A stretch of 25,044 bases of DNA, from the IMG/VR virus record IMGVR_UViG_2529293240_000020, positions 1-25,044 of that record; one strand, written 5' to 3'. A program made the translations under genes and the position numbers. Every line of letters starts with the position of its first letter. Within the stretch, counting starts at the first letter, position 1. The notes below the pieces were generated by a model that saw only the letters and a list, made by a program, of their open reading frames with translations, did no database searches and was not told the DNA's origin. The stretch is from a virus. Taxonomy: Duplodnaviria > Heunggongvirae > Uroviricota > Caudoviricetes. This document shows positions 2,726-25,005 of this stretch, one piece after another.

Positions 2726-3544
2726 TTAAGCAGCCATCTGATGATATTTTTCCCTGAAGGCTGCCGGGGAGATATTCCCCAGACGAGAGTGACGACGCTG
2801 ACGATTGTAGAAAATCTCAATGTATTCCCGTATTACTGAGATGGCTTCATCCCGGTTATTAAAACGATAGTGGCTCAGGCTCTCATTTTTCAGCGTTCCC
2901 CAGAAGCTTTCCATCGGAGCGTTGTCGTAACAGTTACCTTTACGCGACATTGATGTTTTCAGACCAGACTGCTCCTGTATGACCCGGTAATCGTATGCGC
3001 AGTACTGTGAACCTCGATCAGAGTGGTGGATTAGCCCGGCAGGTGGGCGCTGGCTCCTGAGCGCCATAAACAGGGCTTTACCTGTCAGCTCTTTTGTCAT
3101 GCGCTCTCCCATGGCGTAGCCGACAATTTCGCACGTATAAACATCTTTGATGCCAGCGAGGTACAACCATCCCTCCTGTGTGGCAACATACGTCAGGTCC
3201 GCCACCCAGACCTGATTTGGTGCTGTAGGAGCGAACGTCTGGTTCAGCAGATTTGGCGCAACTGGCAGATTGTGGTTCGGGTTCGTAGTCGCTCTGAACT
3301 TGCGTTTCTGCTTACAGCGTAGCCTTAGCTCCTTACGAAGACGTGCCAGTCGGTCACGACCAACGATGATGCCATTCTCTGCCAGCTCCGTCTGGAACCG
3401 CCGGGTTCCATATGTTTCGCGAGTGCGGATATGTGCCACCTTAATCTCCAGTTTTAGCCGCTCATCACTTTGTTTTCTGTCTGAGGGTTCATGCTGTACC
3501 CAGTTGTAATAACCGCTCCTGGATACACCAAATACCTGACACAT
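2726..3544 (-). CDS. IS600-like transposase OrfB (DDE integrase domain), expressed as an OrfAB fusion by -1 frameshift
   Basis: IS3-family OrfB with DDE catalytic region (HSDRGSQY... and downstream E); the frame overlaps the orfA 3-prime end. Confidence 0.8.
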   Translation of the reverse strand: MCQVFGVSRSGYYNWVQHEPSDRKQSDERLKLEIKVAHIRTRETYGTRRFQTELAENGIIVGRDRLARLRKELRLRCKQKRKFRATTNPNHNLPVAPNLLNQTFAPTAPNQVWVADLTYVATQEGWLYLAGIKDVYTCEIVGYAMGERMTKELTGKALFMALRSQRPPAGLIHHSDRGSQYCAYDYRVIQEQSGLKTSMSRKGNCYDNAPMESFWGTLKNESLSHYRFNNRDEAISVIREYIEIFYNRQRRHSRLGNISPAAFREKYHQMAA

Positions 3545-3579
3545 CGCTTCAATGGGAAATTGTTGTCGCCATTGTTCGA

Positions 3580-3882
3580 TTAACGCGTATTTTTCAGCGA
3601 CTCCTGTGCAAAATACGCTGTTGCTTTTTTTAATATATCTCGCTCAAGGCGAGCTTCATTTAACGCCTTACGCAGTTGCAGAATTTCAGATTCCAGTTCA
3701 GCCACCGTGCGGGAACCAGGAGTACCGAGCCCTTTTCTGGCGGCGGTAACCCATTGTCCTAAAGTGCCTTCAGGAAGGGATAATCGGGAAGCGCCTTCAC
3801 TGATCGAAAGTTGATTTTCAAGAACCGTTCTGACAGCTTCGGCTTTGAACTCTTTAGAGTAACGTTGGGTTTTTCTGCTCAT
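3580..3882 (-). CDS. IS600-like OrfA (HTH plus leucine zipper), 100 aa
   Basis: ATG at 3882..3880, typical IS3-family OrfA length and sequence. Confidence 0.8.
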   Translation of the reverse strand: MSRKTQRYSKEFKAEAVRTVLENQLSISEGASRLSLPEGTLGQWVTAARKGLGTPGSRTVAELESEILQLRKALNEARLERDILKKATAYFAQESLKNTR

Positions 3883-10288: not shown

Positions 10289-10331
10289 GTCAGTCTCCGT
10301 CGTCTGGGGTTACCGACGGTCAGTATGCGGA

Positions 10332-10367
10332 AGGCAGAAAAAAAGCCGGATTTACCGGCTTCACTGA
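10332..10367 (-). promoter_or_regulatory. Copy B of a ~35-bp repeated dyad element (AAGCCGG-ATTTA-CCGGCTT hairpin plus T-run on the minus strand), 50 nt upstream of the protease gene start
   Basis: Near-identical to 17871..17906 (two substitutions and one A-run length difference); minus-strand RNA would fold as a 7-bp stem, 5-nt loop, followed by UUUUUU. Confidence 0.45.
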
Positions 10368-17860: not shown

Positions 17861-17870
17861 ATGGTGCCGG

Positions 17871-17906
17871 AGGCATAAAAAAAGCCGGATTTACCGGCTT
17901 CATTGA
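17871..17906 (-). promoter_or_regulatory. Copy A of the ~35-bp repeated dyad element (hairpin AAGCCGG-N5-CCGGCTT plus T-run on the minus strand), beginning 6 nt after the Mor/C-like stop codon
   Basis: Near-identical to 10332..10367; has the structure of a Rho-independent terminator for the minus strand and sits at the distance from the lys start expected for an activator site. Confidence 0.5.
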
Positions 17907-19217: not shown

Positions 19218-19301
19218 CTCTTAATACCTTTTCTGGATTCAGGAAAACTGCGCCGGTAACCTCCAGCAGATTCACCAGAGCATGGGTCGCAATTGCTGCA
19301 G
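19195..19301 (-). pseudogene. 3-prime fragment of an early gene disrupted by IS911 (reconstructed ~118-aa ORF)
   Basis: Removing IS911 and one CAG copy joins 20554..20809 to ..19301 in frame: ...NGDCLA/AAIATHALVNLLEVTGAVFLNPEKVLRDENTDDY*. Confidence 0.5.
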
Positions 19302-19373
19302 TGAAGTGGCACACTGAATTTGGCCACCTGAACAGAGGTGATATGCTCACCTCAGAACAACACAGGTGCTCCA

Positions 19374-20542
<1,169 letters not shown>

Positions 20543-20550
20543 CCACTTCA

Positions 20551-22068: not shown

Positions 22069-22299
22069 ATTCATTTCCTCTGGTCCTGATTCAGGCGCGA
22101 GCAATCCCCTGACGCATCGCGCCATAATTAAAAGAAAGTGAATTAATTAAATATTCGTCGTGGTATTAAATACCGGCTTCCTGTTCAAACGGAATAATAG
22201 AAAAATCTTCAATGCCTGATTTAACTGTAATTCCGGCGACACCTGCGACTGCTTTCGGCTCCAGTAAAATCGCTTCCTTGTTGAGGTAATGACTCCAAC

Positions 22300-22803
22300 T
22301 TACTGATAGTGTTTTATGTTCAGATAATGCCCGATGACCTTGTCATGCAGCTCCACCGATTTTGAGAACGACAGTGACTTCCGTCCCAGCCTTGCCAGAT
22401 GTTGCCTCAGATTCAGATTATGTCGCTCAATGCGCTGAGTGTAACGCTTGCTGATAACGTGCAGCTTTCCCTTCAGGCGTGATTCATACAGCGGCCAGCC
22501 ATCCGTCATCCATACCACGACCTCAAAGGCCGACAGCAGGCTCAGAAGACGCTCCAGTGTGGCCAGAGTGCGTTCACCGAAGACGTGCGCCACAACCGTC
22601 CTCCGTATCCTGTCATACGCGTAAAACAGCCAGCGCTGACGTGATTTAGCACCGACGTAGCCCCAATGTTCGTCCATTTCAGCGCAGACAATCACATCAC
22701 TGCCCGGTTGTATGCGCGAGGTTACCGACTGCGGCCTGAGTTTTTTAAGTGACGTAAAACCGTGTTGAGGCCAACGCCCATAATGCGTGCACTGGCGCGA
22801 CAT
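22300..22803 (-). CDS. insB: IS1 InsB (transposase catalytic part, made as an InsAB-prime fusion by frameshift)
   Basis: Sequence characteristic of IS1 InsB (...[28 protein letters not shown]...). Confidence 0.8.
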
Positions 22804-22997
22804 CCGACGCCATTCATGGCCATATCAATGATTTTCTGGTGCGTACCGGGCTGAGAGGCGGTGTAAGTGAACTGTAGTTGCCATGTTTTACGGCAATGAG
22901 AGCAGAGATAGCGCTGATGTCCGGCAGTGCTTTTGCCGTTACGCACCACGCCTTCAGTAGCGGAGCAGGAAGGACATCTGATGGAAATGGAAGCCAC
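22722..22997 (-). CDS. insA: IS1 InsA (zinc-finger DNA-binding regulator), 91 aa
   Basis: [40 protein letters not shown]... characteristic of IS1 InsA. Confidence 0.85.
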
Positions 22998-23196
22998 GCA
23001 AGCACCTTAAAATCACCATCATACACTAAATCAGTAAGTTGGCAGCATTACCGAACTTCTGGAGTGCAGAATCACCAATCCTAATATTACTACTAAATAG
23101 CTGCGCCTAATAACGCGACACCCGCCGTTTACTGTCTGGTGGCTTAACCTGCAAGGGCTGGCTGAAAGTGGGACACTATGCCGCGCAGCTATTTAG

Positions 23197-24438
23197 TCAC
23201 CCAACTAGCTTCATTCCTTTTATCCCACCTTCAATCATGCTTCCACGATCCGCTGCCATCACAAAATTTGCCCACCATTGCATCATCGGGCGACGCTGTT
23301 CCAGGTAATCGCTGCGGTTATAAGCACGACGAACCTCATTCTTATCCACATGGGCCAATGCTGCCTCAATGGCATCAGGCGGAAAGCCTTGTTCATTAAG
23401 AGCCGTACTGGCAATTGATCTCAGACCATGCGAAACAAGCACACCACCAAAACCTGCGCGTTTTAGTGAGGCGTTAACAGTCTGACTGTTCATAGGCTGG
23501 TTGGGCTTGATACGGCTAGGAAAGATAAATTCTCGGTTGCCGCTTAGCGGTTTCATCATCTCCAGCACAGCTATTGCTTCATCTGACAATGGAACAGTAT
23601 GGTCGCGGTTCATTTTCATGCGTGCTGCGGGAATCTTCCACTCTTGCGCTTCTATGTCTACTTCTTCCCAGCGAGCTTCAGCCGCTTCGGCAGGGCGGGT
23701 AATAGTAAGAAGTTGCCACATGAACAGGCAGCGTGTGGAAAGGCTAATGCTGGCTGTTCGCATTGTCTGCATCAGTTGAGATAGCTGATCCGGTCGAATG
23801 CTGGGCATGTTCTTTTTCTGAGGCTTTTCGAAGGCTTTACCGATATTAACGCTGGGAACAGCATCAATCAGCCCTGTGTTCTGGGCATAGATCATGACCT
23901 CATTAATACGTTGACACAGGCGACGAACCGTTTCCAGTGCTCCTCTGGCCTGAACCGGTTGTACGGCCTGAACCAGTGTATGAGCTTTAATATCTGTAAC
24001 GCTAACGTCGCCAATCGCAGGAAAGACATCTCTTTCAAGAGAGCGCCAGATATCTTCCGCATAGTCCTCTGTCACACTGGCTTTCTTCACATTCCACCAA
24101 CGTTCAGCTACGAGCTGGAAAGTATTGGTTTTGGCTTCCAGCGAACTACGCAATTGTTCTTGCTGATGTTCCTGCGGATCAATCTGTTTAGCTAGGAGTG
24201 AGCGGGACTCTGCACGGTAGTTTCTGGCATCGGCAAGGGTAACTGACGGGTAAGGGCCTATGCTTTTCTTTGCTCGTTTCTTGGTGACAGGGCGAATGTA
24301 GCGAAACTGCCAGATTTTACTCCCGCTGGATTTAATGAGTAGCTCAAGGCCATCGCCATCATAGAGAACGTAGTCCGCTTCCTTGGGTTTAGCAGATTCG
24401 ATTTCCTTAACGGATAGAGGTTTGGTTTGTCTTGCCAT
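23197..24438 (-). CDS. int: Tyrosine recombinase / integrase, P4-type (CP4-57 IntA-like), 413 aa, apparently intact
   Basis: Downstream of ssrA in the same orientation with a 204-bp gap; catalytic H-x-x-R (HGLRS) and Tyr (AYNRSDY) motifs; N-terminus MARQTKPLSVKEIESAKPKEADYVLYDGDGLELLIKSSGSK typical of P4-family integrases. Confidence 0.85.
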   Translation of the reverse strand: MARQTKPLSVKEIESAKPKEADYVLYDGDGLELLIKSSGSKIWQFRYIRPVTKKRAKKSIGPYPSVTLADARNYRAESRSLLAKQIDPQEHQQEQLRSSLEAKTNTFQLVAERWWNVKKASVTEDYAEDIWRSLERDVFPAIGDVSVTDIKAHTLVQAVQPVQARGALETVRRLCQRINEVMIYAQNTGLIDAVPSVNIGKAFEKPQKKNMPSIRPDQLSQLMQTMRTASISLSTRCLFMWQLLTITRPAEAAEARWEEVDIEAQEWKIPAARMKMNRDHTVPLSDEAIAVLEMMKPLSGNREFIFPSRIKPNQPMNSQTVNASLKRAGFGGVLVSHGLRSIASTALNEQGFPPDAIEAALAHVDKNEVRRAYNRSDYLEQRRPMMQWWANFVMAADRGSMIEGGIKGMKLVG

Positions 24439-24458
24439 TGCCGGGTTTCCATAGTTTT

Positions 24459-24509
24459 AGGCACCTCAAAGACAATATAGCTTTATGAAGTGCCTAACAA
24501 GGTGCCTAA
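24459..24509 (-). promoter_or_regulatory. Three copies of an 8-mer (AGGTGCCT / GTGCCTAA) in the ssrA-int intergenic region; candidate arm-type or operator sites and promoter region of int
   Basis: AGGCACCT at 24459..24466 (inverted), GTGCCTAA at 24490..24497 and 24502..24509, within 70 bp upstream of the int start. Confidence 0.3.
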
Positions 24510-24563
24510 AAGGATCGGATTTAATTAGTTGGCATCAGACTTCGCGGGACAAATTCGGGGCAC

Positions 24564-24596
24564 AAAAAAGCCCGCAGGGCTTGCGCCGTGCGGGCT
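24564..24596 (-). terminator. Rho-independent terminator downstream of ssrA (GC-rich 11-bp stem with one mismatch, then UUUUUU on the minus strand)
   Basis: GCCCGCAGGGC-TTGC-GCCGTGCGGGC followed by the complement of the A-run at 24564..24569; lies ~45 nt past the tmRNA 3-prime end. Confidence 0.5.
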
Positions 24597-24642
24597 CTTA
24601 GGACTTCATCGGATGACTCTGGTAATCACCGATGGAGAATTT

Positions 24643-25005
24643 TGGTGGAGCTGGCGGGAGTTGAACCCGCGTCCGAAATTCCTACATCCTCGGTACTACA
24701 TGCTTAGTCAGTCTTTACATTCGCTTGCCAGCTGCGGACGGACACGCCACTAACAAACTAGCCTGATTAAGTTTTAACGCTTCAACCCCAGGCAGGGCTT
24801 CCACGCGATCTCTTTTGGGTTTGACCTCTCTTGATCCCCGTCCTAAGAGCGGAGGCTAGGGAGAGAGGGCTCTAAGCAGGTTATTAAGCTGCTAAAGCGT
24901 AGTTTTCGTCGTTTGCGACTATTTTTTGCGGCTTTTTACGAGGCCAACCGCCCCTCGGCATGCACCTTGGGTTTCGCAAATCCCGTCGAATCCAGAATCA
25001 GCCCC
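24643..25005 (-). ncRNA. ssrA: tmRNA (SsrA, 10Sa RNA), 363 nt
   Basis: Reverse complement reads GGGGCTGATTCTGGATTCGACGGG ... GCAAACGACGAAAACTACGCTTTAGCAGCTTAATAA (tag-peptide ORF) ... GGACGCGGGTTCAACTCCCGCCAGCTCCACCA, matching enterobacterial ssrA as recalled. Confidence 0.9.

Follow-up and report, generated by a model that had tools for sequence, protein, structure and literature searches.

An intact P4-type integrase gene beside ssrA in Shigella flexneri is most probably a stranded remnant of an IS1-truncated CP4-57-like island

The full-length integrase gene located next to the tmRNA gene ssrA in the DNA analysed here is very probably a stranded and fixed remnant of a CP4-57-like island truncated by IS1, and not a working mobile element. 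The analysed stretch (25,044 nucleotides, positions 1 to 25,044 of IMG/VR record IMGVR_UViG_2529293240_000020; hereafter the window) is Shigella flexneri DNA; its coordinates coincide with AFOW01000037.1, and CP100042.1 has the same configuration. From the comparisons described below, we infer the following order of events. In an ancestor of S. flexneri, a CP4-57-like island with a class-A integrase would have entered the 3′ end of ssrA by integration and thereby have formed attL, contributing int, the terminator of ssrA and the three arm-type sites next to int. An IS1 would have inserted 144 bp downstream of int, and the remainder of the island, with the excisionase gene and the attR arm, would later have been removed or relocated by IS1-mediated events, either adjacent deletion or recombination between this and other IS1 copies, or both. 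S. flexneri lineages would thereby have ended with differing DNA past one shared IS1. The integrase is regarded as stranded because neither a partner site nor a directionality factor is located nearby, and it may have stayed intact because the truncation was recent and nothing selected against it.

The ssrA gene (24643–25005, minus strand) was identified by ARAGORN and by Rfam (RF00023, 295.8 bits); it codes for the tag peptide ANDENYALAA according to ARAGORN and is identical to ssrA of Escherichia coli K-12 at 363 of 363 positions. Judging from related loci, the att core region for IntA-type integrases would correspond to the last ~36–52 nt of ssrA (~24643–24694, minus strand), since nine of these loci, representing att sites of tandem islands, carry just the last 36–52 nt of ssrA upstream of the integrase gene. 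Between ssrA and int lies a spacer of exactly 204 bp (24439–24642), in which a terminator scan detected the intrinsic terminator of ssrA (24568–24582, minus strand) as a terminator-like hairpin with a T-run. The terminator sequence matches that of K-12 CP4-57 almost base for base and is conserved in the 204-bp spacers of related loci, pointing to a supply of the ssrA terminator by island DNA. Among 80 related loci, drawn from GTDB species representatives of other Enterobacterales and including no Shigella genome, about 70 display the same geometry of ssrA, 204 bp and int. A simple scan of the spacer revealed no sigma-70 promoter for int; the arm-type sites probably overlap this promoter.

The integrase gene (23197–24438, minus strand) was recognized by its ORF and by Pfam matches and codes for a protein of 413 aa. 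Its Pfam domains are Arm-DNA-bind_3 (DUF4102; PF13356, E 5.9e-21), Phage_int_M (PF22022, E 3.4e-24) and Phage_integrase (E 3.2e-36), such that both the N-terminal arm-binding domain (Arm-DNA-bind_3) and a central core-binding domain are present; PDB domain matches are 3ju0/3jtz ("CP4-like integrase") and 2kj8. The residues R248, K275, H337, R340, H363 and Y373 are all present, are essentially invariant in 73 relatives and align with those of P4 Int; from its conservation, K275 is presumably the catalytic lysine. The protein shares 84 % identity over 413 aa with IntA of K-12 and 34 % over 402 aa with P4 Int (E 6e-82), and the exact protein is labelled in the sources as "integrase [Shigella flexneri]" or "Prophage CP4-57 integrase". 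Together, these features mark the gene product as a full-length P4-type (CP4-57 IntA-like) tyrosine recombinase, which is apparently competent and accompanied by an intact attL. The family-wide dN/dS is ~0.03. The preliminary description had likewise read the integrase as full length with catalytic motifs, placed it 204 bp from the 3′ end of ssrA with the terminator and three 8-mer repeats in between, and counted 144 bp of island sequence before IS1, all of which is borne out by the coordinates.

Three copies of the 8-mer TTAGGCAC are present in the 25-kb window (24457–24464 on the plus strand, 24490–24497 and 24502–24509 on the minus strand), all inside 53 bp, with ~0.65 copies expected window-wide. 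Based on repetition, conservation and the layout of P4 attP, the three 8-mers are predicted to represent arm-type integrase binding sites (24457–24509, read on the minus strand) arranged like those of P4. On the int strand they form two direct sites, TTAGGCACC at 24501–24509 and TTAGGCACT at 24489–24497, and one inverted site, GGTGCCTAA at 24457–24465. The positions of the arm sites are conserved over the 80 loci, and their sequence changes in step with the integrase clade: 47 loci combine a class-A N-terminus with GGCAC sites, 33 combine a class-B N-terminus with GGCCC sites, and mixed combinations are absent. At residues 9–11 of the N-terminus, SVK goes along with TTAGGCACC sites (class A, to which the integrase of the window belongs), versus TDT with TTAGGCCCA sites in the other IntA subfamily. 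This covariation represents a natural specificity switch and could guide experiments on how the arm-binding domain of P4-type integrases reads DNA.

Downstream of the int stop codon, homology revealed the 144 bp that are left of the original island (23053–23196, intergenic, minus strand). By direct reading, this tail is near-identical to the sequence downstream of int in E. coli RMDEC465 (the identity of 96.5 % to RMDEC465 applies to the entire 1992-bp query rather than to the tail), and it shares 94.4 % identity with Scandinavium manionii. In both relatives the sequence runs uninterrupted past the point at which IS1 begins in the window (...CAGAAGTTC directly followed by AAAGTTAATATT...), the continuation of the island beyond the tail being AAAGTTAATATTAAACC. 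The tail also holds a 15-bp perfect inverted repeat. A structured RNA closed by this 15-bp stem was considered and rejected, with a fold z-score of only −1.09 and no Rfam match. The IS1 that follows (22285–23052, minus strand; 768 bp, insA/insB) was delimited by its 23-bp terminal inverted repeats and Pfam matches. It lacks the 9-bp target duplication of a simple insertion, the flanks in the window being CCTTGTTGA and GAACTTCTG, whereas an IS1 that lies in the Mu early region at another locus (L022), serving as positive control, has a perfect 9-bp duplication (CAAAATCCG on both sides).

Comparison with further S. flexneri records, including CP024470 (strain 71-2783) and CP026803 (strain 89-141), revealed the int-side junction of IS1 to be identical in 10 loci. 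Six of the contigs run past IS1 and display three different configurations on the far side: the Mu-like prophage cut within gam (as in the window), fucPIKUR, or ygaC...nrdHIE, with the 9-bp target duplication missing in all three. The block of ssrA, int, 144-bp tail and IS1 differs by 0–3 nt over 2950 bp among the six loci spanning IS1, and by 0–1 nt in the four further contigs that stop at the IS1 edge; identity of int among these loci is partly given by construction, because they were retrieved by exact protein match. The int-side junction is older than the split of the three configurations. In two loci (L004 and L006), reverse-complementing the far flank CGGTCGGTT gives AACCGACCG, the flank of a second, inverted IS1. 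This relation proves an inversion between two IS1 copies and implies an earlier deletion state in which int, IS1 and gabP′ were contiguous. For the configuration of S. flexneri K-227/89-141, such a pre-inversion arrangement of int, IS1 and gabP′ would imply that the rest of the island and attR had been deleted. The earlier view that the island had been replaced is imprecise; the sequence points to truncation by IS1 rather than to replacement.

Searches of the window for an excision partner were negative throughout. A second att core (21-mer core, up to 3 mismatches) was not detected in the window, neither were the degenerate E. coli attR core or the attR flank of K-12/RMDEC465, nor any TAGGCAC arm site beyond the three adjacent to int. 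Using K-12 AlpA and P4 Vis as tblastn queries against the window for an AlpA/Vis-type excisionase, the best match had an E value of 0.16. With respect to cargo contiguous with int, just the 144 bp homologous to RMDEC465 and Scandinavium precede IS1. Hence, of the hallmarks of an intact excisable ssrA island, attR, a directionality factor and contiguous cargo are all absent from the window. IS1 takes the place that alpA occupies in K-12, and AlpA is said, in older work, to be required for CP4-57 excision. Overexpression of AlpA induces CP4-57 excision in E. coli K-12 (PMC10107115). E. coli has a degenerate attR core, so that CP4-57-type excision leaves ssrA without T357 and the tmRNA inactive, a defect that is synthetically lethal when arfA is lost as well (PMC10107115). 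In S. flexneri, which is devoid of arfA, ssrA is essential (PMC3581467).

These results bear on the two alternatives raised in the preliminary description, a remnant kept by chance or an integrase still acting on a larger composite element. The latter would consist of int, IS1, the Mu-like prophage and more, with attR beyond the window and the whole block excisable. It could draw on the intact integrase and attL and on the fact that the window stops within an IS66 element, leaving the distal end of such a block outside the view. It is nevertheless extremely improbable: other S. flexneri strains carry core genes (the fuc operon or ygaC-nrd) past the identical junction of int and IS1, the inversion signature implies deletion of the attR-containing region in one lineage, the Mu-like prophage simply runs on past the window in CP100042.1, and an AlpA/Vis-type directionality factor is missing from the window. 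Moreover, an excision yielding inactive tmRNA (PMC10107115) would kill S. flexneri, which lacks arfA (PMC3581467). Nothing in support of a composite element was found, the att searches having covered the window. The remnant alternative, by comparison, agrees both with the window, which is devoid of a second att core, an attR flank, an extra arm site and an excisionase, and with the other S. flexneri strains, in which the identical int–IS1 junction abuts ordinary chromosomal genes.

On its far side, IS1 is abutted by the 3′ remnant (~119 bp; 22166–22284, minus strand) of gam from a Mu-like, SfMu-related prophage, as recognized by comparison with complete copies in two other loci (L019 and L022). 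The prophage runs from the gam remnant to the start of the window, is broken by IS911-like, IS3-family and IS66 elements, and was assigned from Pfam matches to Mu genes, similarity to SfMu and comparison with L019 and L022. In the window it lacks ~6 kb at the left end, with c, ner, A, B and kil gone entirely and gam for the most part. Other strains carry the prophage in full, with c, ner, A, B, kil and gam, and at chromosomal positions that vary; on contig AKMV01000036.1 it is located ~110 kb away from int. Derivation of the window arrangement from this contig by a single IS1 inversion was ruled out, since the gene orientations do not fit; hence, at least two events took place or Mu inserted independently.

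Arrival of the Mu-like module by transposition, as proposed previously, thus applies to its original insertion somewhere in the chromosome, as attested by the complete copies at differing sites elsewhere, and does not extend to its position beside int, which is defined by an IS1 junction inside gam without target duplication and appears to be made by rearrangement. Direct transposition of the Mu-like phage beside int, with the present junction being the original Mu end or the result of trimming by an IS1 adjacent deletion rather than of recombination between IS1 copies, is possible though unlikely. Mu-like phages insert almost at random, which agrees with the differing sites of the complete copies between strains, and IS1 adjacent deletions are established likewise to leave no target duplication. 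However, the junction is not a Mu end, as ~6 kb of the left end are gone and the break falls within gam at the IS1 terminus, and the int-side IS1 junction predates the split of the three configurations. Additionally, the IS1 of the window carries a lone private SNP (G648) within its far-side 120 bp, which would fit, if weakly, a hybrid IS1. The absence of a 9-bp duplication together with the inversion signature favours IS1-mediated deletion or recombination, and not direct Mu transposition, as the process that set the prophage beside int. Either recombination between two IS1 copies or adjacent deletion by IS1 may have made the junction with gam′, G648 being the sole hint between them.

The intactness of int raises the question of selection. 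The gene could be maintained because it acts in trans on class-A elements, because it was domesticated as a recombinase or regulator, or because the "locked" state is favoured. Such maintenance would be consistent with the wide occurrence of the exact protein in S. flexneri (128 contigs; 259 collection blocks), with its survival in intact form amid the numerous IS elements and pseudogenes of this genome, and with the very strong conservation of the integrase family (92–98 % amino-acid identity across genera). It is nonetheless highly unlikely: the 0–3 nt differences over ~3 kb, in loci retrieved by exact protein match, suggest too little time for decay with or without selection, a second class-A arm or att site is absent from the window, and E. 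coli 55989/O104:H4 displays the same retention of int after loss of the right end of its island to IS3. A converse case for decay or relaxed selection was built on P220S and V356A, which are both non-synonymous, fall at codons invariant in 73 relatives and, in a comparison of 37 class-A genes, are the only nucleotide states that the window shares with no other gene. It was rejected, because at least two such singletons occur in 13 of 74 sequences, because the test is biased by homoplasy where synonymous sites are saturated, and because P4 Int has alanine at the V356 position. Overall, int displays neither measurable decay nor any sign of selection. For the stranded remnant favoured here, recent truncation, suggested mainly by S. 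flexneri being a young lineage, would suffice to account for the intact gene without selection; in addition, the target for neutral deletion is small, with about 1.5 kb before the terminator of ssrA, which is essential in S. flexneri.

A further proposal, in which loss of alpA and of the attR arm was favoured rather than neutral in S. flexneri, is very unlikely. It follows from the notion that an excisable ssrA island is a lethal liability in S. flexneri, because excision inactivates tmRNA and this organism, lacking arfA, depends on ssrA. If true, an IS1-"locked" remnant would represent a safe state, with the 3′ end of ssrA and the terminator still provided, and the intact integrase a harmless passenger of selected immobilisation. 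Irrespective of this proposal, the locus is of low importance for new biology and provides a clean example of IS1 reshaping the S. flexneri chromosome, with one breakpoint and three partners. It also carries a warning for annotation, as an intact integrase gene by ssrA is no evidence for a mobile island; software that predicts islands from an integrase gene beside a tRNA or tmRNA gene would wrongly assign the neighbouring Mu-like prophage to the cargo of an ssrA island.

Among known systems, CP4-57 of E. coli K-12 shares with the window an integrase of the same length (IntA, also SlpA; 413 aa), located 203 bp (K-12) or 204 bp (window) downstream of ssrA and transcribed away from it, a nearly identical stretch of ~150 bp after ssrA including the terminator, and three arm-type sites at the same positions. 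The two differ in the arm sites, (T/A)TAGGCCCA in K-12 versus TTAGGCACC in the window, and correspondingly in residues 9–11 (TDT versus SVK). K-12 furthermore retains alpA, ~22 kb of cargo and a degenerate attR (psaA), in contrast to just 144 bp before IS1 in the window. P4 Int has the same three-domain architecture, and the logic of attP is shared as well, with the core ~110–150 bp upstream of int and two direct plus one inverted arm repeat in between; the other arm holds two more repeats in P4 attP, as it does in the attR arm of RMDEC465. The P4 arm repeats are TTGGGGGCAT-type 12-mers, unlike the sites in the window, and P4 integrates into the leucine tRNA gene leuX, whereas the integrase family of the window targets ssrA. 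P4 also possesses both arms and an annotated excisionase gene, known as vis, compared with a single arm and no directionality factor in the window.

The closest E. coli relative is the island of RMDEC465, the integrase of which shares 99.0 % protein identity with that of the window and which has the 144-bp tail and the class-A arm sites in common with it. This island retains ~23 kb of cargo (DUF2290 plus DEAD-box helicase, GTPase, DUF932, RadC and a CbtA/YeeU toxin-antitoxin pair) and an attR arm with two TAGGCAC copies ~70 bp from the degenerate core. Since dS between the two int genes is about 0.2, it represents a cousin rather than the source. The truncated state itself has its counterpart in E. 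coli 55989/O104:H4, where int is kept as in the window and the island has lost its right end to IS3 in ypjA; this parallel suggests that int is generally left beside ssrA as a side effect when an island is truncated distally.

The tmRNA gene ssrA is complete in the window (24643–25005, minus strand; detected by ARAGORN and Rfam) and identical to that of Escherichia coli K-12 at 363 of 363 positions. It is followed on the same strand, after a spacer of exactly 204 bp, by an integrase ORF (ORF call) of 413 amino acids (23197–24438). The spacer harbours a terminator-like hairpin with a T-run (24568–24582; terminator scan) and three copies of the 8-mer TTAGGCAC (24457–24464, plus; 24490–24497 and 24502–24509, minus), which are the only ones counted across the 25-kb window and lie no more than 53 bp apart in total. 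An IS1 element of 768 bp with 23-bp terminal inverted repeats and insA/insB (22285–23052; repeats and Pfam) leaves exactly 144 bp behind the integrase stop codon. The preliminary description, which had reported this order of tmRNA, spacer and integrase, the terminator and three 8-mers between them, and 144 bp before IS1, was accurate throughout. Window coordinates correspond to positions 1–25044 of AFOW01000037.1. Directly after the int stop codon begins a 15-bp perfect inverted repeat (CTAAATAGCTGCGC...GCGCAGCTATTTAG, 23093–23196) enclosing a loop of ~75 nt, which is conserved in E. coli RMDEC465 and, in part, in Scandinavium manionii; the fold of the region does not surpass that of shuffled sequence (z = -1.09), and an Rfam search gave no match.

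The integrase carries the three Pfam domains of P4-type integrases (Arm-DNA-bind_3, Phage_int_M, Phage_integrase) and the residues R248, K275, H337, R340, H363 and Y373, all (nearly) invariant among 73 full-length relatives, which bears out its earlier assignment as a full-length P4-type enzyme with catalytic motifs. It shares 84 % identity with IntA of the K-12 cryptic prophage CP4-57 and 34 % over 402 residues with P4 Int (E 6e-82); the PDB offers as relatives only single domains (N-terminal or core-binding) of "CP4-like" integrases. The exact sequence was found on 128 contigs from public sources, under the names "integrase [Shigella flexneri]" and "Prophage CP4-57 integrase, S. flexneri K-227". 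Two unannotated records of ~46 kb, labelled Klebsiella phage Kp4865-2 (OK490418.1, H41) and Kp4866-6 (OK490421.1, H42), also encode integrases close to that of the window (96.4 % and 94.9 % identity, respectively), so that this type of integrase apparently serves full-size prophages in addition to CP4-57-like islands.

Scanning bacterial genomes, one per species, yielded 80 related loci from many Enterobacterales genera, with integrases 82–98 % identical to that of the window. About 70 of them show a full ssrA, an equivalent spacer of ~180–205 bp and int, the spacer being exactly 204 bp in all closest relatives. In the P4 GenBank record, the attP core is located ~150 bp upstream of int, with two direct and one inverted arm repeat in the interval and two direct repeats in the other arm; the window likewise has two direct sites and one inverted, the latter 19 bp ahead of the ATG. 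Site positions are constant across the 80 loci, and the site sequence occurs in two forms: TTAGGCACC, TTAGGCACC and GGTGCCTAA accompany integrases starting with MARQTKPLS(V/A/F)KE (class A, including that of the window; 47 loci), and TTAGGCCCA, ATAGGCCCA and TGGGCCTAA those starting with MAR(K/R/Q)TKPLTDTE (class B, the K-12 IntA type; 33 loci). None of the 80 loci combines the site form of one class with the N-terminus of the other, a match that at attL alone is explicable by linkage. In RMDEC465, whose class-A island is intact, the attR arm lies ~23 kb from int and contains two direct TAGGCAC sites ~70 bp from the core (about 27480–27520 of this locus, L109), whereas the attR arm of K-12 has TAGGACC/TGGGACC instead. 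Based on the P4-like layout and the class-matched attR arm, the 8-mers of the window are regarded as putative binding sites of the N-terminal arm domain, with attL contributing three sites and attR two to the full set. The pairing of TTAGGCACC with PLS(V/A/F)KE versus TTAGGCCCA with PLTDTE has the appearance of a natural switch in the specificity of the P4-type arm-binding domain, and the window integrase belongs to the class-A arm-site subfamily within the well-known CP4-57/P4-type family. The int promoter of P4 is autoregulated; by analogy, autoregulation via the three sites, located on either side of an AT-rich segment immediately before int, is plausible, and a simple promoter scan of the spacer found no int promoter.

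K-12 CP4-57 as annotated extends from 15 nt inside ssrA to the 14-bp degenerate repeat psaA. The first ~150 bp past ssrA, including the terminator, are almost identical in K-12 and the window, hence the ssrA terminator is derived from the island. At nine loci, merely the last 36–52 nt of ssrA are present upstream of int; these fragments represent junctions of tandem islands and set bounds on the size of the att repeat. At five loci (L029, L031, L047, L060 and L064), the class-A island is separated from ssrA by another island, observed ~250 bp upstream of the partial ssrA. This intervening island ends with a separate tyrosine integrase gene facing the ssrA fragment of 36–45 nt and has tandem repeats of its own (AGGAGCCG, twice) directly before this fragment. 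At these loci, which come from several genera, unrelated ssrA islands are arranged in tandem.

The 144 bp past int match intergenic DNA behind the orthologous int of RMDEC465 and S. manionii, where the sequence reads ...CAGAAGTTC|AAAGTTAATATT... and continues into island cargo; the window IS1 breaks in precisely at this point. A search of public assemblies for the exact integrase protein retrieved ten loci. Six pass through IS1 and differ by 0–3 nt over the 2950 bp from ssrA via int and the 144 bp to IS1, and four stop at the IS1 edge of their contig (0–1 nt differences over ~2.2 kb compared). Past IS1, three continuations were observed: the Mu-like prophage (AFOW, i.e. the window, and CP100042.1), fucPIKUR-rlmM-gcvA (AKMV01000036.1 and CP024470.1), and ygaC-alaE-stpA...gabP' followed by a second, inverted IS1 and ygaM-nrdHIE (AFGY01000046.1 and CP026803.1). 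CP024470 and CP026803 are S. flexneri 71-2783 (serotype 3a) and 89-141 (serotype Y), respectively (PMC5754485, PMC9455713). A 9-bp IS1 target duplication is absent in all three configurations; the test itself works, since an IS1 in the Mu early region of another strain's locus (L022) has a perfect one. In the ygaC configuration, the sequence adjoining the int-proximal IS1 on its far side (CGGTCGGTT) is the reverse complement of that bordering the second IS1 on the outside (AACCGACCG), a trace left by an inversion between two IS1 copies in opposite orientation. Reversing this inversion gives int-144 bp-IS1-gabP' as the earlier state, which corresponds to an IS1-associated deletion that took away the remaining island together with attR, ypjA and all genes as far as gabP, judged by the gene order in reference genomes.

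Most of the window (1–22284) is occupied by an SfMu-related Mu-like prophage, which is cut inside gam by IS1 at 22284 and in CP100042.1 runs on beyond the window start, where tail and baseplate genes follow. It is interrupted by an IS911-like element of the IS3 family (~19300–20550), and its tape-measure gene by a second IS3-family element (2726–3882) and an IS66 element (about 1–2359). Only ~119 bp of the gam 3' end remain beside IS1, hence the Mu left end lacks ~6 kb, and the junction is an IS1 terminus rather than a Mu end. Other genomes have the same prophage complete, with repressor (c), ner, A, B, kil and gam, elsewhere in the chromosome, and in AKMV01000036.1 it lies on one contig with int, ~110 kb away. 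Arrival by transposition, as proposed previously, holds for the original entry into a chromosome, but the place beside int was made by IS1-mediated rearrangement, as attested by the gam/IS1 junction. This step may have been recombination with another IS1 copy or an adjacent deletion. The window IS1 has a private G at 22405 (position 648 from the int side), which is A in all others compared (the copies next to int in the other two configurations, the second IS1 in the ygaC configuration and the L022 Mu-region IS1). Located in the far-side 120 bp, it weakly hints at a hybrid IS1 made by recombination, and could also be a simple mutation. Two 42-nt direct repeats inside the prophage (10326–10367 and 17865–17906; 90 % identical), each containing a hairpin with flanking A/T runs (AAAAAAAGCCGGATTTACCGGCTT), probably mark bidirectional terminators at module boundaries.

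Family-wide, dN/dS is ~0.03 (e.g. 48 synonymous and five non-synonymous differences between the window and RMDEC465 int), a value shaped by selection within mobile islands rather than within Shigella. Two private substitutions of the window protein, P220S and V356A, affect otherwise invariant columns; they were rejected as signs of decay, as 13 of 74 sequences have at least two such singletons and P4 Int has Ala at the position of V356. The S. flexneri copies differ by at most one synonymous change, a comparison biased by retrieval via the exact protein. From the family dN/dS, the singletons and these copies, neither decay of int nor selection on it is measurable. S. flexneri is a young lineage, and mainly from this we infer that the IS1 junction common to its loci is recent, which would be enough to account for the intact ORF.

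No second att core was found in the window at up to three mismatches in 21 nt, nor an E. coli-type degenerate core, an attR flank, a further arm site or a homologue of AlpA or Vis. In combination with the IS1 deletion and rearrangement, the integrase is best explained as a stranded remnant, one of the two readings proposed initially; the other, action on a larger composite element, finds no support in a window devoid of such partners. AlpA-induced excision of CP4-57 yields ssrA without T357 and an inactive tmRNA, and is synthetically lethal with arfA deletion (PMC10107115); S. flexneri has no arfA, and its ssrA is essential (PMC3581467). The attR cores of K-12 and RMDEC465 are degenerate in the same way as the T357-lacking ssrA. 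S. flexneri would probably not survive excision of such an ssrA island, so that loss of the excision apparatus would be at least harmless and, more speculatively, possibly favoured. The ssrA island of E. coli 55989 (NC_011748.1, 2979298–2993342) encodes an integrase 94.6 % identical in DNA, and its right end consists of a GTPase pseudogene, IS3 and a partial ypjA; by this truncation, its attR is probably also gone. The pattern in E. coli 55989 (O104:H4) is thus the same as in the window: int is kept at ssrA, and the right end of the island was lost to an IS element, there IS3 in ypjA.
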